Shown here: positions 43,553 to 53,900 of the stretch, piece after piece
Layout of the letters: every line of letters begins with the position of its first letter
Position numbering within the stretch: position 1 is the first letter of the stretch
Assembly: GCF_056712565.1 (NCBI RefSeq)
Contig: NZ_CM160072.1
Length of the DNA: 64,000 bases
Strand: one strand, 5' to 3'
The notes under the pieces: generated by a model
Seen by the model: only the letters and a program-made list of their open reading frames with translations
What the model was told of the DNA's origin: nothing
Database searches by the model: none
Position numbers and translations under genes: made by a program

Positions 43553-44014
43553 TTAATTGGCCAGCACCACATTATGGGAAAACTCTTTTTCACAGTATTT
43601 GCATTTGAGCGCGATATCATTGGCGCGTTTTCGCACGGCAAAGCTGGATGAAACCGGTTCGGCATGGCTGATACAGTTGCTGTTCGGGCAGACCAGCACA
43701 TTGTCGATGCGCTCTGGCAGACTGGGGCGCGATTTGCCAACCACTTCATAGTTGTCGATACGGTTAACCGTGGCTTGCGGTGCATATAACGCCAGCTGAT
43801 CAACCTGATCCTCACTTAAAAAGGTATTTTCGATTTTGATCAGATCCTTGCGCCCCATCTCGCCAGAAGGCAGGTTCAGACCAATGGTGATGCGCTGATC
43901 TGTTTCGGTCAACTTGAACAGACTCAACAGTTTAAAACCGATCTGGGCGGGGATATGGTCAATTACCGTGCCGCGTTTAATAGCTTCAACCTGCAATTTA
44001 TTATCGTGTGTCAT
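43553..44014 (-). CDS. pyrI: aspartate carbamoyltransferase regulatory subunit
   Basis: 153-aa ORF; C-terminal zinc-binding cysteines. Confidence 0.95.
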
Positions 44015-44026
44015 CTCTATTTCCCC

Positions 44027-44962
44027 TTACAGTACCAGATCGCGATTCAGAACCAGTGCCAGTAACGCCTGGCGAGCGAAAATCCCGTTGCCTGCTTGCT
44101 GGAAGTACCAGGCGTGAGGCGTTTTATCCACATCCGTCGCAATCTCATCAACACGCGGCAGCGGATGCAGCACTTTCATATTGGCTTTGGCGTTGTGGAG
44201 ATCGCTGGCGCGAAGAACAAACTGCGCTTTCACGTTGGCGTACTCGGACGGGTCCAGACGCTCTTTTTGCACGCGGGTCATGTACAGGATGTCTACTTCC
44301 GCCATCACTTCTTCAATAGAGCTGTGCAGACTCCAGGCGATCCCTTTTTCATCGAGCATATCCAGAATGTATTGCGGCATTGCCAGCGCATCCGGCGCGA
44401 TAAAGTAAAAACGGTTGCCGTCGAACTTCGCTAGCGCCTGGGTCAGGGAGTGAACGGTGCGGCCATATTTCAGGTCACCAACCATTGCGACGTGGAGATT
44501 GTCCAGACGCCCCTGGGTTTCCTGAATGGTGAATAAGTCCAGCAAGGTTTGCGTCGGATGTTGGTTGGAGCCATCACCGGCATTCAGTACCGGTACATTG
44601 CCGGAAAACTCGGTGGCCAGGCGCGCTGCACCTTCCTGCGGATGACGCATCACTATCGCATCGACGTAAGTGCTGATAACCGAAATGGTATCGGCCAGCG
44701 TTTCGCCCTTTTTACCCAGTGATGTATTGGCGCTGTCGGAGAAGCCCACCACGCTGGCACCCAGGCGGTGCATGGAAGTTTCGAAAGAGAGGCGGGTGCG
44801 GGTAGAGGCTTCGAAGAAACAGCTGGCAATAACTTTGTGCTTCAACAGCTCTGGTTGCGGGTTCGCTTTCAGTTTCGCCGCTGTCGCCAGCACCAGATTA
44901 AGGTCATCGCGACTAAGGTCGTTTATGGAAATGATATGTTTCTGATATAGCGGATTAGCCAT
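44027..44962 (-). CDS. pyrB: aspartate carbamoyltransferase catalytic subunit
   Basis: 311-aa ORF; STRTR carbamoyl-phosphate binding motif. Confidence 0.95.
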
Positions 44963-44965
44963 CTT

Positions 44966-45100
44966 TTATCTCCTGACGCCTGGGCAAAAAAAAGCCCCTC
45001 GATTGAGGGGCTGGGAATGGGTGATCAACGGGAAGAAAAACGGCAGGCCAGCGTCTTTTTTCAGACGCGGTAAGACAAAATGTCGAACACACTGAACCAT
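44966..45100 (-). CDS. pyrL: pyrBI operon leader peptide
   Basis: Hand translation MVQCVRHFVLPRLKKDAGLPFFFPLITHSQPLNRGAFFCPGVRR (44 aa) immediately upstream of pyrB. Confidence 0.85.
   Translation of the reverse strand: MVQCVRHFVLPRLKKDAGLPFFFPLITHSQPLNRGAFFCPGVRR
44986..45012 (-). terminator. pyrBI attenuator terminator
   Basis: AGCCCCTC-gatt/aatc-GAGGGGCT hairpin followed by T8 on the minus strand, inside pyrL. Confidence 0.75.
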
Positions 45101-45189
45101 ACATCCTCCCGGCAAATTGTCCGGCATTATACTCAGCTCTGAGAGAGGATCAAGAAGATGATGCAGTTATAAAGCAAGGCAAACGGTTA

Positions 45190-45678
45190 TCATGAATATA
45201 TATTCAATTTTAATAAGTAATTAATTTGCTTGTGCACCAGGGCTGTACGCTTTACCACACGTGGTGCGACCCAAACGATATTGCTGCCAGCAATCACGCC
45301 AAGAATTTCTGGCAAAGCATGGAAATCAAGGATTCGTGCTACTGCCCGACCATATCCGGCGACGGTATGGATAAGGATAAATTCACCATTATGCTCGACA
45401 CTCAGGACCATTTCAGCGACGGATCGACCTGCGTCAGGTGTGGGAAGTAATTGAGGATTCACCGAATAAATTTTTTGTCCTTTTGTATTTCTAATTTTTA
45501 TGACTCCCAGCAATTTCAGTAGTCGTGAAACGGTTGACTGACTGATACTGTCAAAGCCATGGTTTTGCAAATCGCGGCGGATTTCCTCCTGTGAAAGATA
45601 ACTTTTTTCGGTAATCAGGCGCTGACAGACCGCCAGTTGCTTCTTTTCTTTGGCGGAGTAATCATCGTATTCCTTCAT
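45190..45678 (-). CDS. ArgR-family transcriptional regulator (ADI cluster-associated)
   Basis: ORF 45190-45744 trimmed to Met at 45678 preceded by AAAGGTG; ArgR-like DNA-binding region (SQSTVSRLLK...IRNTKGQ) and C-terminal oligomerisation region. Confidence 0.75.
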   Translation of the reverse strand: MKEYDDYSAKEKKQLAVCQRLITEKSYLSQEEIRRDLQNHGFDSISQSTVSRLLKLLGVIKIRNTKGQKIYSVNPQLLPTPDAGRSVAEMVLSVEHNGEFILIHTVAGYGRAVARILDFHALPEILGVIAGSNIVWVAPRVVKRTALVHKQINYLLKLNIYS

Positions 45679-45793
45679 AATGCACCTTTTATTTATTATT
45701 ACCTGATGATATTTTTCACATTTTATAATGTGAGAGTGGTTCATTTATCACTACACCAGATTTGAAGGCCGCTTTGATAAGCGGCCTGTCGCG

Positions 45794-47197
45794 TTAAATC
45801 ATCGCGGCGATACTCAGCACAATCATATTCAACATCGTGAGAATCAGCAGTAGCGGTGCTACCCATCTCAGATAACGGACCCAGGGTACACGGGCAATCG
45901 CCAGACCGCCCATCACTACCGCAGAGGTTGGCGTAATCAAATTAACCACCCCGGAAGCAGACTGATAAGCGGTCACCACCAGATCGCGTTGTACATGAGC
46001 AAAATCAGCGAGTGGAGCCATTATTGGCATCGTTAACACTGCAAGGCCGGAAGATGAGGGAACCAGAAAAGAGAGCAATACTTCCAGCCAATAGGTCACG
46101 TTGATGAAAACAGTGGTGGAAAGCCCTGAAACCAGATTCTCAGCACTGTGCAGAATTGTGTGCGTAATCATGCCGTTATCCATCACGACCACAATACCGC
46201 GGGCGATGCCGATAATCAGTGCCACACCAAGGAGATCCCGCGCGCCGTCAATAAAGGTACTGGTGAAGGTTTCTTCGCCCATGCGGGCAATGACACCCAC
46301 GATGACCGCAGCTGCCAGAAAGACAGCAGAGATTTCCGCCATCCACCAACCCAGTACCGCTACGCCGTAAATCATAAAGGCAAAGGATGCAGCAAAAAGT
46401 ATCAGGATCGCTTTGCGCGTGGGGGTAAATTCCAGCATCGTTTCTGAACGATTTCCCAGAAAATGCGCCTGGTTTTCAGCCATCTTATCCGCCACGATAG
46501 AGCTTTCCGGACTGTTGCGAACTTTGCGGGCATAACGCATAACCCAGTAAACACAAATCACGTAGCCTACTAACAGCAAAATAACACGCAGCAAAATGCC
46601 CTGAGTAAAGGGGATCCCTGCGGCGTTGGCAGCAATGACGGTAGCAAATGGGTTAATGGTTGAGCCCAGCGTGCCAATGCCCGATCCCAATAACACTGTG
46701 GCGGCAGCGACCAGAGGATCAAAGCGGGCAGCCATCATGACGGGCACCAGCAACGTGTAGAAGGGGAGTGATTCTTCCGCCATCCCATAAATAGTACCGC
46801 CAGCAGCGAAGAGCGCCATCAGGATCGGAATCATCCACTCTTCCCGACCATTAAGGCGAGTTGTCACTCGTTCGATACCGGCATCTATTGCTCCGGTTTT
46901 ATTTACTACTCCCAAAAATCCACCGATGATCAGGACAAACAGCGCGACATCAATCGCTCCCGCAGTGTAGGTTTGATGGTTGTACAAGCCGTCGATGGGC
47001 GCTAACAGGACAGCCGTAATACCCTGTGGTTGCGCCTCAACAGGTGCGTAAGTGCCTGCAACAGGAACTTCCTTTCCCAGTGCGGCATTTGTCACCATCT
47101 GATATTTTCCCGCAGGTACAATCCAGGTCATTGCCGCAACTAACGCAATCAGCACGAACAAGATGGTATAAGCGGTGGGAAATTTGAATTTACCCAT
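45794..47197 (-). CDS. membrane carrier, probably YfcC/DcuC-type anaerobic carrier family; putative arginine/ornithine exchanger of the ADI cluster
   Basis: ORF 45794-47242 trimmed to Met at 47197 preceded by GGAGA; highly hydrophobic multi-TM protein; family assignment from sequence recall only. Confidence 0.7.
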   Translation of the reverse strand: MGKFKFPTAYTILFVLIALVAAMTWIVPAGKYQMVTNAALGKEVPVAGTYAPVEAQPQGITAVLLAPIDGLYNHQTYTAGAIDVALFVLIIGGFLGVVNKTGAIDAGIERVTTRLNGREEWMIPILMALFAAGGTIYGMAEESLPFYTLLVPVMMAARFDPLVAAATVLLGSGIGTLGSTINPFATVIAANAAGIPFTQGILLRVILLLVGYVICVYWVMRYARKVRNSPESSIVADKMAENQAHFLGNRSETMLEFTPTRKAILILFAASFAFMIYGVAVLGWWMAEISAVFLAAAVIVGVIARMGEETFTSTFIDGARDLLGVALIIGIARGIVVVMDNGMITHTILHSAENLVSGLSTTVFINVTYWLEVLLSFLVPSSSGLAVLTMPIMAPLADFAHVQRDLVVTAYQSASGVVNLITPTSAVVMGGLAIARVPWVRYLRWVAPLLLILTMLNMIVLSIAAMI

Positions 47198-47253
47198 AAT
47201 GTGATCTCCATAATCACGGGCATACGCCACTCGTCGACGCATGCCCGTCAGGG

Positions 47254-48258
47254 TTAGTCGCCGAGAGTTGCTACCATCACCGCTTTAATGGTGTGCATCC
47301 GGTTTTCTGCTTCATCGAAAACAATGGAGTGGGCAGATTCAAAAACCTCATCAGTTACTTCCAGTCCTTTGAGGCCGTAGGCCATCTCGATCTCGCGTCC
47401 TACTGTGGTGTGCTCATTATGGAAGGCGGGCAGGCAGTGCATAAATTTGACTTCAGGGTTACGCGTGGCAGTAATCACCTGTTGATTGATCTGATAAGGT
47501 GTCATAAGACTCACTCGTTCTGCCCAGGCTTCTTTTGGCTCTCCCATCGAAACCCAAACATCCGTATAGAGAAAATCAACGTCGTATACGCCTTCTTCCA
47601 CATCCTCTGTCAGGGTGATTCTCGCCCCAGTCACGCTGGCGATCTCACGGCATTGTGTTACCAGCGCTTCATCTGGCCAGAAAGATTTTGGTGCCACCAG
47701 ACGGATATCCATCCCCATTTTTGCAGCACCAACCATCAGCGAGTTCCCCATGTTATTTCGGGCATCACCAAGATACGCAAAGCTCAGCTCTGGCAGCGTT
47801 TTGCCTGGCGCATGTTCCAGCATGGTCATTAAATCCGCGAGGATCTGTGTCGGGTGAAATTCATTGGTCAGTCCGTTCCATACCGGAACACCAGCGAACT
47901 CACCTAATTCTTCAACGATATTCTGACCATAACCGCGATACTCAATACCGTCATACATGCGTCCGAGTACGCGAGCGGTATCTTTCATTGATTCTTTATG
48001 GCCGATTTGTGAGCCGCTGGGGCCGATGTAAGTCACCTGCGCACCTTGATCAAAGGCCGCGACTTCAAAGGCACAGCGGGTACGGGTAGAGGATTTTTCA
48101 AAAATCAACGCAATGTTTTTACCGACCAGCGTTTGTTTTTCGTTTCCAGATTTCTTGGCGGCTTTAAGATTGATAGCCAAATCAATCAGGTATTGAATCT
48201 CTGCTGGGGTGTAATCAAGCAGCTTAAGAAAATTACGGTTTTTCAGTGAAGTAGCCAT
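47254..48258 (-). CDS. ornithine carbamoyltransferase (ADI-cluster copy, ArgI-like)
   Basis: ORF 47254-48285 trimmed to Met at 48258 preceded by AAGGA; STRTR and HCLP motifs; high similarity to argI product at 51620-52624. Confidence 0.85.
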
Positions 48259-48268
48259 GGGGATGTCC

Positions 48269-49213
48269 TTATAAAAATGGATCAAGCGTGGTTATGGGGG
48301 TATCAAGGCGAATAAGAGTGCCTTTGTCTCCGGCGAGAATTTCCGGACCATCTGCAAGAGAGCCGATCCCTGCAATGCCCCGGCACTGACTAACAAACTT
48401 TGCGCAGGCGGTGACTTTCGGCCCCATAGACCCGGCATCAAACTGCATTTCGTTGAGTAATTCCGGCGTGACCTGGGCCAGCGGGCGTTGGGTTGGCTTG
48501 CCCCAGTCGAGATATACTGCGTCCGCATCAGTGAGGATCAACAAGGCGTCAGCATGGATCTGACTTGCCAGTAGCGCGGCTGAAAGATCTTTGTCGATAA
48601 CCGCTTCAATCCCATGGTATCCATCGGCTTTTTCAACCACCGGAACACCACCGCCACCATTACAGATCACCAGATGATCGTGGGCGATCAGTGTCTGGAT
48701 GGCATCCCGCTCGACGATGCGTTTAGGTTGTGGAGAAGGTACGACCCGGCGGAAAGAGTGACCATCTGCTTTGAAAACCCAGCCTTTTTCTGCCTGTAGT
48801 ACCTGAGTCTGAGCGTGGTCATAAATTGGGCCGATGTACTTAGTTGGGTTACTGAAGGCGGGATCGTTGGCATCCACTTCAACCTGCGTCAGCAGAACGC
48901 TGATTTCACGTTGTGGTAGTTGATTTTTCAGCGCCTGTTGTAGCATGTAGCCGATCATCCCCTGGCTTTCGGCCCCCAGAATGTCGAGTGGATAGGGAGC
49001 GACATGGGCATAGGCGCTATTTTGAAGTGCCAGAAGTCCAACTTGTGGACCATTCCCGTGAACCAGTACAACCCGCCAGTGTTGAGTCAGTTGGGCGATA
49101 GTTTTAGCCGCAAGATCGATATTTTTACGTTGGATTTCTGCTTCGAGTGGTTCGCCTCGTTTAAGCAGGGCATTACCGCCGAGAGCGATAACCAGTGTTG
49201 GTTTGTTTTCCAT
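48269..49213 (-). CDS. carbamate kinase
   Basis: ORF 48269-49237 trimmed to Met at 49213 preceded by AAGGAAG; carbamate kinase-like sequence ([10 protein letters not shown]...). Confidence 0.85.
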
Positions 49214-49223
49214 GATCTCTTCC

Positions 49224-50447
49224 TTAGATACCGTCACGATGCAAAGGGCAACTCATGCAACGTGCGCCGCCACGTCCGCGGCCTAATTCATCACCGGGGA
49301 TGGGTAAAACGGTGATGCCTGCTTTGTCATATTTTTCGTTAGTCCAGATGTTGCGCTCGTAGCCCACTACCACTCCCGGCCGAAGCGTGAGCACATTGTT
49401 AGCGTCATTCCACTGTTCGCGTTCTGCCTCAAAGGCATCACCCCCCGTGGTGATTAAACGTACCTGGTCAATACCGAGGGCTTTTTCGATAGCATGGAGG
49501 AGTGTGCTTTCTTGAGTACGTTTCAGGCCGCCGTGACCGTCAGGTGTTAGCGTCCAGCAATTAACATCCGGGCGCACAACTTCGGGATAAACCGAGAAGG
49601 TGTCGATATCGATATGAGTCATAACGGTGTCAAGATGCATACAGGAGCGGTGTTTAGGCAGCTCAACAGCGATTACCCGTTCAGCCTGACGATGTTTAAA
49701 CAATGCCTGAGCAAGAAACTCGATTCCTTGTGGCGTGGTGCGTTCAGACATGCCGATCAACACGGCCCCCCGACCAATCACCAGCACATCACCACCTTCT
49801 AACGTGGCGTGGTCATAATTAATATTCTCGTCGCCGAAATATTTAATAAATTCGCCGCCAGCAAATTGTGGATGCCAGCGATAAATAGCGCGTAGATTAT
49901 TGGTTTCACGTTGGCGAGCAGGTTTTGCCATTGGATTAATCGATACACCGTTATAAATCCAGCATGAGGTATCACGCGTAAATAAATGATTCGGTAACGG
50001 CTTCATAATGAAATCATTAATATCGTGGGTATCAACCACCATATTTTTAATTGAGGCGGGAATTTCACTATAAGTCAGCCCACCACTTAAATGACGAGCA
50101 AGGTCCCGGTGTGACATCTCTGCAAGCCAGGTGCGAACGTCAGTAGCAAACGTAGGGCCGAGTCGGTAATCTGATATTTGTGTTTCCAGTAACCAGCTTT
50201 TGGCTTCCGGGATATCCAATGTTTGTGTTAGTAAATCAGTGAGTAACAGAACTTCTATCCCTTGCTGGCGCAGCGTATTGGCGAAAATATCATGCTCTTC
50301 ACCTGCCCGCTCAACGGACAATACATCGTCAAATAACAACTCCTGGCAATTGGATGGTGTTAGACGTTTCAGACTGAGATTTGGGCGATGCAACATAACG
50401 CTGCGTAGTTGTCCAATTTCAGAACCAACATAATGCTTTTCCATCAT
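49224..50447 (-). CDS. arginine deiminase
   Basis: 407-aa ORF; amidinotransferase-family sequence with C-terminal catalytic Cys region (RCMSCPL). Confidence 0.85.
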
Positions 50448-50567
50448 TATTCCTTTAACACTTTTTCAAAAATAAAGAGGAGATGGCTGCAAACAAATTA
50501 AATGCTTGTAGTCAGGTCTGTTCAGTAATTTTCAGATGCAATGATTCAGTTTATTTCTTCCAGAAAA

Positions 50568-50583
50568 TGTGACGACTTTCACA
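50568..50583. promoter_or_regulatory. perfect CRP consensus site TGTGA-N6-TCACA upstream of the ADI operon
   Basis: TGTGACGACTTTCACA read directly, about 120-135 bp upstream of the arginine deiminase start. Confidence 0.5.
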
Positions 50584-51094
50584 CCAGTGATGATATTAAT
50601 AATCGCAGTTAATAATATTTGATGCGGTTCTGATAAATGATAAAGAAACAAAATACGATAATGCATTAATACGCAAATATACGCAGAGTTATTCTTCGTT
50701 GTTAATTGATTGTTTTATTTTTCAGGAAATGCCTTTAAGTATAAAGCATTGATATTTATGTATATTTTAATATTCATTGCATATCTATGCGAAAGAATAA
50801 GGTGATTATTTTTCACAGCACTATTTTCACGGGATAACTATGACAGCACGGGCATTAAAAGCTAAGAAAATGAACTGTGATCTGACTGAGAGTTTTCTTT
50901 TAACATATGCAATAACAAGATATTAGGACCAAAATACATAGCTAAGTTATAAGATTTATGCAGCAAAACTGCATACAAAATTACTCCTGCTTAACATCAG
51001 TACAACATCTCCAGCAATAAACATGCGCAAGGGCAAAACCTGATGATTTTTCTATGGTGAGAGGTGGCTTTTTTTCGTATAAGGAAAGAAGTGA

Positions 51095-51574
<480 letters not shown>

Positions 51575-51583
51575 GTGATCACT

Positions 51584-51613
51584 GCCGGGGGGCGACCTGT
51601 GCCGCCGCCCGGC
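51584..51613. terminator. GC-rich hairpin between convergent tabA and argI
   Basis: GCCGGGGGGCG ... CGCCGCCCGGC stem with one mismatch. Confidence 0.45.
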
Positions 51614-51619
51614 AAAACG

Positions 51620-52624
51620 TTATTTTGCTAATGTAGCGACCATAACAGCTTTTATGGTGTGCATCCGGTTTTCTGCCTGGTCAAAGACAATACTTGCCGG
51701 AGATTCAAAGACTTCATCGGTGACTTCCATTCCACCATACAGACCGAATTCTGCGGCCATTTTTTTACCCAGCGTGGTTTGCTCATCATGAAATGCAGGC
51801 AGACAGTGGAGGAACTTAACCTGCGAATTACCGGTCAGGGCCATCATTTTGCTATTCACCTGATAGTCACGCAGCAGGGCAATACGCTCCGCCCATTTCT
51901 CTTTGGGCTCACCCATCGATACCCAGACATCGGTATAGATAAAGTCTGCACCTTTAACCCCAGAGGCGATATCTTCCGTCAAGGTGATTTTACCCCCGTG
52001 TTTTTGTGCCAGAGCACTGCATTCGGCGACCAGCGCAGCTTCCGGCCAGCATGCCTGTGGCGCGACCAGACGCAAATCCAGACCGGTAAGCGCCGCAGCT
52101 TCGAGCATCGAATTGCCCATGTTGTTACGCGCGTCACCTGCATAGACCAGCGTCATTTCGTTGAATGCTTTGCCGGGCAAATGCTCCTGCATGGTGAGGA
52201 GATCCGCCAGCAGCTGCGTGGGGTGGAACTCATTGGTCAGGCCGTTCCATACTGGCACGCCAGCGTATTCCGCCAGTGTTTCGACAATCTCCTGACCATA
52301 GCCGCGATACTGAATACCGTCATACATGCGACCAAGCACGCGGGCAGTGTCTTTAATCGACTCTTTGTGACCAATCTGGCTGCCGCTTGGGCCGAGATAA
52401 GTAACGCGAGCACCCTGGTCATATGCGGCAACTTCGAAAGAGCATCGGGTACGGGTCGAGTCTTTTTCGAAGATGAGCGCGATGTTTTTGCCAGTGAGTC
52501 TGGCTTCTTCTTTACCGCTTTTCTTATCGGCTTTCAGCTTCGCGGCTAACTGCAACAAGCTGTTGAGTTCAGCTGGCGTGAAATCGAGTAATTTCAGGAA
52601 ATGCTTATGATAAAACCCGGACAT
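51620..52624 (-). CDS. argI: ornithine carbamoyltransferase (anabolic)
   Basis: ORF 51620-52828 trimmed to Met at 52624 ([13 protein letters not shown]); 334 aa; ARG boxes upstream. Confidence 0.9.
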
Positions 52625-52647
52625 AGATCCCTCCTGTGGCCAACGCC

Positions 52648-52690
52648 TTAATGAATTAAAATTCAATCTATATGGATGATTATTCATTTG
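52648..52690. promoter_or_regulatory. tandem ARG boxes (ArgR operator) in argI promoter
   Basis: AATGAATTAAAATTCAAT then TGGATGATTATTCATT, matching the TGAAT-N4-ATTCA pattern, 24-66 bp upstream of argI ATG. Confidence 0.55.
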
Positions 52691-52785
52691 CAAGTCTAAA
52701 GCATAAATCTTTGTCACAAAGGTGGAGGCAATGTCAGTGGTGTGTGACAATAAGAGTATCGGCAGGACATTAAGAGGAATGAGCC

Positions 52786-53202
52786 ATGGCAAACCCGGAA
52801 CAACTGGAAGAACAGCGTGAAGAAACACGTTTGATTATTGAAGAATTACTGGAAGATGGCAGCGATCCGGACGCGCTGTACACCATCGAACACCATCTTT
52901 CCGCAGACGATCTGGAAACCCTGGAAAAAGCAGCAGTTGAAGCGTTTAAACTCGGTTACGAAGTGACCGATCCAGAAGAGCTGGAAGTTGAAGATGGTGA
53001 CATCGTGATTTGCTGCGACATCCTCAGCGAGTGTGCGTTGAATGCCGACCTGATCGATGCCCAGGTTGAACAACTGATGACGCTGGCGGAGAAATTTGAC
53101 GTTGAGTACGATGGTTGGGGCACTTACTTTGAAGATCCTAACGGCGAAGACGGCGACGATGAAGATTTTGTCGATGAAGACGATGACGGTATTCGTCACT
53201 AA
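52786..53202 (+). CDS. rraB: RNase E inhibitor RraB
   Basis: 138-aa ORF, very acidic C-terminus. Confidence 0.9.
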
Positions 53203-53224
53203 TTAAGCGTTGACGACAAAGGCT

Positions 53225-53315
53225 GCGTTACCTGATGCGCTACGCATATCAGGCCCAGGTAGTTCCTGCAACCTGGTGAATTTGTAGCCCGGATAAGGCA
53301 TTTACGTCACATCCT
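53225..53315. repeat. REP elements
   Basis: CCTGATGCGCTACGCATATCAGGCC / GTAGCCCGGATAAGGCA units after rraB. Confidence 0.5.
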
Positions 53316-53378
53316 GCATACTCAAAAAGCACGTGGTTAATGTTCGAATGCCCGCGAGTCTAAGCTCGCGGGCATTTT

Positions 53379-53900
53379 TCAAAGTTTGCGTAGCATCCGT
53401 ACTTCACAATCGACATGACCCGTGCAGCCAAGCGCATAGTCGATATGCTCAAAGCCCAAATGCTCATAAAGCGCAATGGCTTCCTTTAAAAAAGCGGTCG
53501 TTTCCAGATAGCAGCGTTTGAAACCCATTTCTCGCGCCTGCTCCATTGCCATTAAGGCCAGTTTTTTTGCCAGCCCTTTGCCGCGGATAGCCGGAAGAAA
53601 ATACATCTTTTGCAGTTCGCAAATGTCTGACTCACTCCCGGTTAATGGCGCAATCCCACCGCCGCCGACCACTTCACCCTCGTACTCAACCACCCAATAT
53701 GCGTGGCCAGGCTGACTATATACTTGATACAGCTCGTCAAGGTTCGGATCGGCGACGGTGTAGCCTTTATCAGCGGTAAGACCGTATTCGGCGGATACCT
53801 GACGAATGACGTGGGCGATAGCAGGATTATCGGCGACGGTAAGTTTGCGCAAACGGAGTGCGGGAGAAGCGACAACATTCATAGCATAGCTCAATTTCAA
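53379..53900 (-). CDS. yjgM: GNAT-family N-acetyltransferase
   Basis: 173-aa ORF (start could be Met at 53882); acetyl-CoA binding motif (RGKGLAKKL). Confidence 0.8.

Follow-up and report, generated by a model that had tools for sequence, protein, structure and literature searches.

A second ArgR-family gene at the end of the E. coli arginine deiminase cluster: a RosE ortholog that probably does not sense arginine as ArgR does

What does a second ArgR-type protein do in the cell when its gene closes an arginine deiminase (ADI) cluster and lies close to argI? The question was raised by a sequence-only reading of the window, i.e., the whole stretch of 64,000 nucleotides analyzed here, which is 100% identical to UTI89 and APEC O1 (ExPEC/B2 E. 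coli). This reading proposed an additional ArgR-family regulator, possibly with its own promoter, and asked whether it communicates or forms mixed oligomers with the housekeeping ArgR. The genes concerned are as follows:

45190..45678, minus strand: RosE/STM4463-type ArgR-family regulator gene (ORF and translation, RefSeq, Pfam, identity to the Salmonella protein, AF2 model)
45683..45688, minus strand: Shine-Dalgarno sequence AAGGTG of the regulator gene, read from the sequence, 5 nt upstream of the ATG
45794..47197, minus strand: YfcC/DcuC-family carrier gene, an ArcE-type arginine/ornithine exchanger by context (Pfam DcuC, E = 5.5e-115; RefSeq 'YfcC family protein')
47254..48258, minus strand: catabolic ornithine carbamoyltransferase gene arcB (Pfam OTCace_N and OTCace; RefSeq)
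48269..49213, minus strand: carbamate kinase gene arcC (Pfam AA_kinase; RefSeq)
49224..50444, minus strand: arginine deiminase gene arcA (Pfam ADI, E = 1.1e-135; RefSeq)

The order arcA-arcC-arcB-carrier-regulator puts the regulator at the distal end of the cluster, as the sequence-only reading had it. It is also that of Salmonella, Kosakonia, Enterobacter, Cronobacter, IncF plasmids, and the loci L007, L010, and L012, the carrier gene having the same position in all orthologous loci. The regulator ORF starts with an ATG and encodes 162 aa, and RefSeq annotates it in UTI89 as 'arginine repressor' (WP_000666045.1) at exactly these coordinates. The start is placed at 45678 because the N-termini of the orthologs (MKEYDDY...) and the ribosome-binding region, common to Salmonella and C. 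rodentium, both point there; a longer ORF of 184 aa starting at 45744 was ruled out on these two grounds.

The product carries both ArgR regions that had been recognized from the letters alone, each well over its curated cut-off: the N-terminal winged-helix DNA-binding domain (PF01316, 52 bits for a cut-off of 27) and the C-terminal alpha/beta oligomerization domain (PF02863, 50.4 bits for a cut-off of 25). Its best NCBIfam model is PRK05066 and its best PDB match by phmmer is Vibrio ArgR (3v4g, E = 4.6e-22). When an AF2 model of the monomer (pLDDT 88) is superposed on known structures, it fits the C-domain of E. coli ArgR (1xxa) at 1.7-1.9 Å over 69-70 residues (TM 0.79-0.81) and the AhrC N-domain in complex with DNA (2p5l) at 1.0 Å over 62 residues. 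The two-domain architecture and the fold are thus shared with E. coli ArgR (P0A6D0; PDB 1aoy, 1xxa). However, with 36% identity to the latter and scores below the housekeeping-ArgR equivalog cut-offs (110.8 bits vs 194 and 101.5 bits vs 130.45, NCBIfam NF003457 / TIGR01529), the protein is, by these measures, an ArgR-family paralog distinct from ArgR itself.

The closest described protein is Salmonella RosE/STM4463, with 86% identity at a coverage of 100%. The synteny is identical (argI-yjgK-arcA-arcC-arcB-arcE-regulator-pyrLBI), and the two proteins have in common their 162 aa, a GS(N/S)IVW motif, and their place at the cluster end beside pyrLBI with yjgK and argI opposite; they differ in their last five residues (LNIYS vs MNLNS), and the known target of RosE, std, is a Salmonella fimbrial operon. 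Judged by sequence and gene order, the regulator is the E. coli ortholog of RosE/STM4463, i.e., an ordinary pathway regulator that has already been described. Indeed, the location of rosE (STM4463) on the ADI islet and the presence of this islet in uropathogenic E. coli were published in 2008 (PMC2328253), and the idea of an unrecognized regulator has to be given up. In the literature, we found no experiments on the E. coli protein, and the outcome here is a residue-level annotation of a known regulator, which opens no new broad question. The gene was given the name arcR in a paper on Nissle (PMC10659395). The Gram-positive ArcR of the Crp/Fnr family is likewise encoded in an ADI cluster, but its fold is unrelated; no Crp/cNMP domain was detected in the regulator by Pfam search, and the two thus have just a name in common. 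As for function in Salmonella, the title of Choi et al. 2012 places the STM4467-encoded ADI under STM4463 control (PMC3497419). Moreover, STM4463 mRNA drops 6- to 80-fold in an anaerobic mutant of arcA, here the two-component regulator (PMC3075218), which fits co-regulation with the ADI operon.

We consider it likely that the protein is a pathway-specific regulator of the ADI module (arcA-arcC-arcB-arcE), of ArgR ancestry and orthologous to RosE, which activates ADI expression. It would bind, as an oligomer, ARG-box-like palindromes (TGNAT-W4-ATNCA), and the canonical pocket would not have to contain L-arginine for this. As operators, it would use two single boxes in the arcA promoter, located upstream of a CRP-type site at conserved distances of about 92 and 208 bp, and from there it would help a class II CRP-dependent promoter to fire. 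The elements of this promoter are:

50541..50546, minus strand: AATCAT, putative -10 hexamer for arcA, lying 30-35 bp downstream from the center of the CRP site
50568..50583, minus strand: perfect CRP-type site TGTGAAAGTCGTCACA (10/10 core match), centered upstream of arcA at about 130 bp from the start codon
50662..50675, minus strand: ARG-like box 1 TGCGTATTAATGCA, candidate regulator operator (11/12 to TGNATWWWWATNCA)
50778..50791, minus strand: ARG-like box 2 CGCATAGATATGCA, second candidate operator (10/12)

Salmonella, Kosakonia, Enterobacter, and Cronobacter all conserve the CRP-type site, as do the IncF plasmid copy and a relative with a 40% identical regulator. An FNR reading of this TGTGA-N6-TCACA site was rejected, its discriminating G/C positions being of the CRP type. 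The A and T positions of the AATCAT hexamer are invariant in alignment A6, and its spacing from the CRP site would correspond to a class II geometry. The center of box 1 lies 92-93 bp upstream of that of the CRP site in E. coli, Salmonella, L007, the IncF plasmid, and L012 (regulator identity 40%), its columns being invariant in alignment A2, and the center of box 2 lies 206-209 bp upstream in E. coli, Salmonella, Kosakonia, Cronobacter, and the IncF plasmid. The E. coli arcA upstream region is AT-rich and holds 5 matches of at least 10/12 in 674 bp, which puts each box alone at the level of chance; what argues for the two candidate operators is their conserved position, in sequences that are for the most part alignable homologs. 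Tandem ARG boxes are absent upstream of arcA, where the strict 18-mer finds just matches with 3 mismatches, and the presumed target of the regulator differs in this from those of ArgR, with their tandem boxes 3 bp apart. These single ARG-like boxes at apparently fixed distances from the CRP-type site are new in this analysis.

ADI expression would thus be activated by the regulator, as reported for STM4463 on STM4467. This direction of control is taken over from Salmonella, in which STM4463 is reported to act as an activator of ADI. Such a role has counterparts in Gram-positive bacteria. The Streptococcus pneumoniae ArgR2 and the Streptococcus suis ArgR are extra ArgR-family paralogs dedicated to the arc operon, which they activate in an ADS-specific manner, and the streptococcal paralog binds the arcA promoter, in which no typical ARG box can be defined (PMC4278536). 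These proteins belong to a Gram-positive lineage, whereas our searches place the regulator nearest to gammaproteobacterial ArgR (3v4g, PRK05066), which suggests that the same solution arose independently. The ArgR of Bacillus licheniformis and the AhrC of B. subtilis, as cited in PMC2328253 and PMC4278536, activate arginine catabolic operons. They resemble the regulator as ArgR-fold proteins acting positively at a catabolic promoter with upstream ARG-type sites, but they are single housekeeping, arginine-binding regulators with a GDD motif, while E. coli would use a separate paralog devoid of it.

As for the transcription of the regulator gene itself, the spacer between carrier and regulator (45679-45793) measures 115 bp up to the carrier stop (45794), as first reported. 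It contains two elements:

45706..45734, minus strand: weak sigma-70-like match CTCACA-17-TATCAT, candidate internal promoter (9/12, promoter scan)
45766..45787, minus strand: GC-rich hairpin AGGCCGCTT-ATCA-AAGCGGCCT, just past the carrier stop codon (RNA fold -18.9 kcal/mol, z = -2.95)

The hairpin lacks a U-tract, and the terminator scan called no terminator there; an Rfam scan of 44000-53500 gave no RNA family at threshold. From genus to genus, the spacer varies from 56 to 180 bp and cannot be aligned (in Salmonella, it measures 180 bp and is largely unrelated), and it contains a hairpin or GC-rich palindromic sequence. The promoter of its own that had been suggested for the regulator comes down to a single 9/12 match, unconserved in the other genera compared. 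Transcription that reads through from the arc operon is no less likely, and we suppose that the regulator is transcribed at least partly in this way, which would give positive feedback.

Is ADI the main target, or merely the occasion on which the regulator is made? The protein may be mainly a pleiotropic repressor acting outside ADI, on adhesins and other horizontally acquired genes, the ADI linkage being an input and not the main output, a reading that we hold possible but rather unlikely. It draws on Salmonella, in which RosE represses the std fimbriae and purified RosE shifts DNA of the std upstream region (PMC2328253). It also draws on Citrobacter rodentium, in which two deletions have removed arcA through most of arcE while the regulator is kept, on many contigs, as an intact ORF of 159 aa. 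Since C. rodentium keeps the regulator without the ADI genes, ADI control is not its sole role; however, the C. rodentium ortholog carries the pocket changes R111C, R115S, and D118N, at three positions that are conserved elsewhere, which may equally mean decay. Against this reading, E. coli B2 is not known to have a std operon, nor is any E. coli target known. Moreover, the regulator and the four ADI genes move together as a five-gene module, found on about 250 plasmids, including IncF, and the linkage to ADI persists in relatives with regulator identities of 49%, 46%, and 40%. For the proposed binding to ARG-like boxes, the std upstream region delimited by a published primer, taken from S. 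enterica subsp. diarizonae, i.e., from another subspecies than in the experiment, was not discriminating: the best ARG-like score was 10/12 in the RosE-bound and in the non-binding fragments, a score reached by 38% of shuffles. Repression of unrelated loci is compatible with the ADI-specific activator that we favor, which may also repress such loci as RosE does at std.

Whether the regulator responds to arginine can be approached through its residues. In ArgR, the recognition-helix residues S47/R48 and their neighbors make base contacts, and the acidic pair D128/D129 grips the guanidinium and alpha-amino groups of L-arginine. The comparison with E. coli ArgR gave opposite answers for these two functions: the loss of key residues, which had been named beforehand as a refutation of the sequence-only reading, is seen in the arginine pocket but not in the part that reads DNA. 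The DNA-reading helix is conserved: Q47, S48, S51, and R52 of the regulator match Q43, S44, S47, and R48 of ArgR (QSTVSRLL vs QSKVSRML). All 119 subfamily representatives have the first three, and 117 of them have R52. The wing keeps R63 and N64 (R59 and N60 in ArgR). On the contrary, among the seven ligand contacts of ArgR, i.e., Q106, D113, T124, A126, D128, D129, and T130 (PMC2880562), five are replaced, the regulator having R, D, V, A, S, N, and I (Q106R, T124V, D128 to S132, D129 to N133, and T130I). Also shared with ArgR are R110, H99/T100, and, in the GTIAG stretch, G123 and A126 (G127 in most). The GDD motif, kept in 88/129 sequences of a family alignment made of representatives and a few added reference sequences, reads GSN in the regulator, and none of the 119 subfamily representatives has an Asp at either position; D128 is missing from every representative above about 40% identity, and Asp129 is also gone in the close subfamily (119/119). 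Instead, the subfamily has its own conserved motif, GYGRAVAR...GS(N/S)IVW, and conserves R111, R115, and D118. The loss of Asp128 across the whole ADI-linked clade, with a fully conserved DNA-reading helix, is new in this analysis.

Because the Asp pair is absent in 119/119 representatives, a second arginine-sensing repressor is unlikely, and the regulator probably does not sense arginine in the ArgR manner. The EMSA buffer listed for RosE contains no arginine (PMC2328253). This probable lack of ArgR-type sensing, together with the CRP-type site of arcA, is of use for predicting when the ADI pathway is on, or for engineering it. The loss of the Asp pair is no proof of ligand independence, since R111, R115, and D118 could form a different pocket. 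We regard it as doubtful, but conceivable, that this re-tooled pocket (D128/D129 lost, R111 gained, R115/D118 kept) could sense citrulline, ornithine, or carbamoyl phosphate, and could even couple ADI-derived carbamoyl phosphate to aspartate transcarbamoylase. Two facts hint at this: R111, R115, and D118 are exactly the residues changed in the ADI-less C. rodentium ortholog, and the adjacency of regulator and pyrBI is retained in relatives at 46% and 40% identity. The coupling would operate through a box that precedes the pyrBI start site by about 80 bp:

45191..45208, no strand assigned: ARG box-like palindrome CATGAATATATATTCAAT over the regulator stop codon, differing at 1 position from the 18-bp consensus; the pyrBI -35 hexamer follows about 40 bp downstream

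This palindrome is conserved in 7/7 enterobacterial loci and in the IncF plasmid, and K-12, which has no regulator, still carries an 11/12 version of it; the main text of the ArgR ChIP-exo paper mentions no pyrL/pyrBI peak. A conserved ARG-like box over the regulator stop codon, upstream of the pyrBI promoter, is also new in this analysis.

The near-identical DNA-reading helix and the kept wing residues make binding to canonical ARG boxes chemically plausible, and this near-consensus box at the 3' end of the regulator gene points the same way. Could the regulator then be a second arginine-responsive ArgR that engages in cross-talk with the housekeeping protein, via mixed hexamers or canonical ARG boxes such as those of argI? 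Mixed ArgR/AhrC complexes are known in Lactococcus. The co-occurrence that such cross-talk supposes is real: argR is present in 5425/5426 complete E. coli genomes (100%) and the regulator, an accessory gene, in 596/5426 (11%), including Nissle 1917, so that the carriers hold two ArgR-family proteins. The canonical tandem ARG boxes some 7 kb away are equally real:

52650..52688, no strand assigned: argI operator with its canonical pair of tandem ARG boxes, a housekeeping ArgR target (0 and 2 mismatches, 3-bp spacer)

The two 18-bp boxes occupy 52650-52667 (0 mismatches) and 52671-52688 (2 mismatches), and 2 ARG-box matches with at most one mismatch were found in the 64 kb for 0.03 expected by chance, one of the 2 being the palindrome over the regulator stop codon. 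Nevertheless, we judge such cross-talk improbable. The arginine-binding Asp pair is gone in the whole subfamily, and the regulator is only 36% identical to ArgR. The named residues of the ArgR trimer-trimer interface, L85, S101, P102, and L107 (PMC2880562), are all four different in the regulator (M90, V106, A107, and A112), and a bulky Y109 stands for ArgR A104. All E. coli have the argI operator in their core, with or without the islet, and the adjacency of argI and arc is an ancient synteny, common to several enterobacterial genera. The neighborhood of argI, pointed out in the sequence-only reading, is no sign of a functional link to its operator.

A last reading, which takes the regulator for what is left of a duplicated ArgR, decaying or without function and simply accompanying the ADI genes, is very improbable: the hallmark ligand residues of the family are lost and the score falls far under the ArgR equivalog cut-off, but the protein has its full length and an identity of at least 99% in all 596 E. 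coli carriers, keeps 70-86% identity across genera with invariant DNA-reading residues and the conserved GS(N/S)IVW motif, and has a Salmonella ortholog with demonstrated phenotypes (PMC2328253).

Successful ExPEC/B2 lineages are marked by the ADI islet, which is found in 90% of pks-positive vs 7% of pks-negative genomes (PMC8545132). A plasmid-borne ADI copy has also been tied, according to a citing paper (PMC7671891), to a trade-off between gut colonization and urinary virulence.

The regulator encoded at the end of the arginine deiminase (ADI) operon arcA-arcC-arcB-carrier is an already known one, of the RosE/STM4463 type. A large protein search places it in a tight enterobacterial subfamily, whose Salmonella member, STM4463, is 86% identical to it, with further members at 70-85% identity in Citrobacter, Kosakonia, Enterobacter, Cronobacter, Yokenella and Buttiauxella. 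STM4463 is reportedly an activator. It was given the name rosE by Chessa et al. 2008, who found that the std fimbrial operon is de-repressed by a Mud insertion located 40 bp before the rosE start, and that purified His-RosE shifts DNA located 225-375 bp upstream of stdA (PMC2328253). The same paper reports the ADI islet in uropathogenic E. coli; in work on E. coli Nissle, the gene goes by the name arcR (PMC10659395). Control of the STM4467-encoded ADI by STM4463 is reported by Choi et al. 2012. In an anaerobic mutant of arcA, here the two-component global regulator and not the ADI gene, STM4463 mRNA is down 6-fold (qPCR) to 80-fold (array) (PMC3075218). In a pangenome study, 'argR_2' and the ADI genes were found in 90% of pks-positive vs 7% of pks-negative genomes (PMC8545132), and a colonisation/virulence trade-off has been tied to a plasmid-borne ADI operon, as summarised in PMC7671891. 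The sequence-only reading correctly saw an ArgR-family protein ending the ADI cluster, but overlooked both its RosE/STM4463 identity and the loss of its arginine-sensing residues.

45190-45678, minus strand: regulator open reading frame, 162 codons, ATG start, with an AAGGTG ribosome-binding site five bases before the start

The same ORF is annotated exactly in UTI89 RefSeq as 'arginine repressor' (WP_000666045.1). Megablast of 1.2 kb around the regulator gave 100% identity to UTI89, APEC O1, IHE3034, NU14 and others, and shows the window to be ExPEC/B2-type E. coli. On the minus strand, the annotation lists, one after another, pyrI, pyrB, pyrL, regulator, YfcC/DcuC-family carrier, ornithine carbamoyltransferase, carbamate kinase and arginine deiminase; past the ADI cluster lie yjgK (plus strand), argI (minus strand) and rraB. 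The regulator is present in 596 of 5426 complete E. coli genomes, where each copy lies on the chromosome, has its full length and shows at least 99% identity, and housekeeping argR in 5425 of them.

The ArgR-like DNA-binding and oligomerisation regions proposed earlier are well founded, both ArgR Pfam domains scoring above their curated thresholds. By sequence, Vibrio vulnificus ArgR comes nearest among solved structures (E = 4.6e-22), and the 31 best PDB matches of the AlphaFold model (mean pLDDT 88.2) are all ArgR/AhrC. Its C-domain superposes on E. coli ArgRC (1xxa) at 1.7-1.9 A and its N-domain on the AhrC N-domain/operator complex (2p5l) at 1.0 A. On the ArgR equivalog model, the regulator reaches 110.8 bits vs a 194-bit cut-off, and so is not an ArgR equivalog; its identity to E. 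coli ArgR is 36% (comparison sequence 100% identical to PDB chains 1aoy and 1xxa).

In ArgR, Asp128 holds the guanidinium group of L-arginine, Arg110 is the resident competitor for Asp128, and the alpha substituents of L-arginine are held by Gln106, Asp113, Thr124, Ala126, Asp128, Asp129 and Thr130 (Strawn et al. 2010, PMC2880562). The equivalent positions in our alignment are R111, D118, V128, A130, S132, N133 and I134, and R115 corresponds to Arg110. Five of the seven contacts are changed, both aspartates among them. Aspartate occurs at the Asp128/Asp129 positions in none of 119 subfamily representatives (S in 116; S or N in 118), and R111, R115 and D118 are kept in 112, 116 and 118 of them. 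The recognition helix is near-invariant, Q47, S48 and S51 (ArgR Q43, S44 and S47) each being found in 119/119 representatives and R52 (ArgR R48) in 117/119; the wing residues R63 and N64 are kept in 116/119. The residue check that the sequence-only reading proposed as its own refutation therefore has two outcomes, arginine-binding residues lost, as would refute it, and DNA-contacting residues conserved, and we conclude from sequence that the arginine pocket is lost in the regulator and its DNA-reading surface kept. When 1.84 billion representatives were searched exhaustively with HMMER, the relatives formed a graded series. D128 is missing in every relative above about 40% identity (motifs GS(S/N), xS(N/T) and GND), and the canonical GDD appears from 39% identity downward and is present in 88/129 aligned sequences. 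No arginine is among the listed components of the RosE EMSA buffer (PMC2328253), which fits arginine-independent DNA binding by RosE but falls short of proof.

The sequence-only reading also raised cross-talk or hetero-oligomerisation with ArgR. The residues named at the ArgR trimer-trimer interface are L85, S101, P102 and L107 (PMC2880562); the regulator has M90, V106, A107 and A112 at these positions, and Y109 in place of A104. These changes argue against easy mixing of the two proteins, though some may occur. Since the recognition helix is conserved, DNA-level cross-talk seems more plausible than hetero-oligomerisation.

The order argI-yjgK-arcA-arcC-arcB-carrier-regulator-pyrLBI is common to the Salmonella, Kosakonia, Enterobacter and Cronobacter loci and to L007, a locus of a further genus with a 69% identical regulator. 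Linkage to ADI genes extends to more distant relatives. In one with a 49% identical regulator, an AA_permease-type carrier gene and arcA-arcC-arcB precede it; in one at 46%, the regulator has pyrBI on one side and a convergent ADI cluster on the other; in one at 40%, the gene order matches that of E. coli. The five-gene module, with a 76.5% identical regulator, also occurs on plasmids, about 250 in number and for the most part conjugative IncF plasmids of E. coli, for instance:

L009 2738-7980: complete arcA-arcC-arcB-carrier-regulator module on IncF plasmid pEc-050-T0_2

The plasmid modules have IS elements on their flanks and are carried mostly by conjugative plasmids of E. coli and Klebsiella. 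Because the linkage holds in distant relatives and on plasmids, the regulator belongs to the ADI module, and its adjacency to argI and pyrBI is ancestral rather than a recent juxtaposition. A B2 strain gaining an ADI plasmid would carry three ArgR-family proteins. In K-12 (MG1655 4472534-4477300 compared with window 45190-51620), yjgH-bdcA-bdcR between pyrL and yjgK/tabA, and yjgL between tabA and argI, stand in place of the ADI cluster of B2 strains; the point at which homology restarts is precisely the ARG-like box that precedes pyrBI. As other genera share the ADI arrangement, it is probably the B2 state that is ancestral, and K-12 would have undergone a replacement. In Citrobacter rodentium, two deletions took arcA through most of the carrier gene and left a 159-aa regulator intact. 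This orphan (L003 8750-9480) stands directly between yjgK and pyrBI, and has C, S and N at the elsewhere conserved pocket positions R111, R115 and D118.

Most likely, the regulator would activate the arc operon without depending on arginine in the ArgR pocket, acting jointly with CRP from ARG-like sites upstream; it may also repress additional targets. Between arcA and yjgK lie 674 bp of intergenic DNA, alignable over six genera, with conservation in discrete blocks. Single boxes were scored against the relaxed ARG consensus TGNATWWWWATNCA.

50541-50546: -10-like hexamer AATCAT, A and T invariant, 30-35 bp downstream of the CRP-site centre
50568-50583: CRP-type site TGTGAAAGTCGTCACA, perfect consensus core (TGTGA-N6-TCACA), about 130 bp upstream of the arcA start
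50662-50675: ARG-like box 1, TGCGTATTAATGCA, centre 92-93 bp upstream of the CRP centre
50778-50791: ARG-like box 2, CGCATAGATATGCA, centre 206-209 bp upstream of the CRP centre

The CRP-type site is kept in all compared genera, in the plasmid copy and in the relative with the 40% identical regulator; its spacing to the -10-like hexamer would correspond to class II geometry, and from this site the ADI operon of E. coli is predicted to be under catabolite control. The position of box 1 is common to E. coli, Salmonella, L007, the plasmid and the 40% relative, where it is the sole match of at least 10/12 within 590 bp; that of box 2 is common to E. coli, Salmonella, Kosakonia, Cronobacter and the plasmid. 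The plasmid copy has the CRP-type site and both boxes with unchanged spacing. Each box alone is at chance level in this AT-rich DNA, and the two are not in the tandem, 3-bp-spaced arrangement; by positional conservation only, they are the leading operator candidates for the regulator. In std upstream DNA of S. enterica subsp. diarizonae, the motif scores 10/12, a chance-level value, both in the fragment bound by RosE and in a non-binding one. The canonical tandem ARG boxes reported at argI are indeed there, three bases apart:

52650-52667: argI ARG box, perfect, 18 bp
52671-52688: argI ARG box, two mismatches

Over the whole window, the ARG consensus at no more than one mismatch gave 2 sites vs 0.03 expected.

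Two other elements in this intergenic region are invariant in six genera. In its yjgK-proximal part, the inverted repeat TATGCA-N8-GCATAA (GTATGCAGTTTTGCTGCATAAA, 50956-50975) has half-sites resembling TGNAT/ATNCA in reversed order. The direct repeat GTT-N8-GTTA (GTTGTACTGATGTTAA, 50991-51006), of 11-bp periodicity, is ArcA-P box-like; it may have to do with STM4463 depending strongly on ArcA in Salmonella (PMC3075218), or with yjgK regulation.

The carrier-regulator gap was measured as described, with a spacer of 115 bp between the carrier stop (45794) and the regulator start (45678).

45716-45733: perfect 18-bp palindrome TCACATTATAAAATGTGA, 38 bp upstream of the regulator start, overlapping a weak promoter-like match
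45766-45787: hairpin with a 9-bp stem directly 3' of the carrier stop, -18.9 kcal/mol, z = -2.95, no U-tract

The suggestion that the regulator may have its own promoter is not borne out by conservation: the spacer holds one weak sigma-70-like match (9/12), and its sequence is not conserved between genera. Its length varies from 56 to 180 bp and it is unalignable, only the final ~25 bp (RBS region) being common to E. coli, Salmonella and C. rodentium. The palindrome is part-present in Salmonella and absent from the remaining genera compared; in several genera, the spacer consists of GC-rich palindromes. Since the rosE insertion at -40 abolishes function, transcription in Salmonella begins farther upstream than -40, as both models would allow. 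The more likely source of regulator transcripts is read-through from the arc promoter, perhaps joined by a weak internal start, rather than a dedicated conserved promoter. From the regulator stop to the pyrBI promoter/leader (44993-45190), the scan found no terminator-like site before the pyrL attenuator hairpin (44993-45012), the first one downstream of the regulator; thus, arc/regulator transcripts may run into the pyrBI leader.

45126-45131: pyrBI -10, TATAAT
45148-45153: pyrBI -35 hexamer, TTGATC
45191-45208: near-consensus ARG box CATGAATATATATTCAAT, one mismatch, overlapping the regulator stop codon

This box precedes the pyrBI -35 by about 40 bp, its centre being at roughly -81 from the estimated start site. 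The pyrBI operon is not known to be an ArgR target. The box is absent from L012, a locus with a 40% identical regulator, and conserved in 7/7 enterobacterial loci and the IncF plasmid copy; K-12, without the regulator, retains an 11/12 version.
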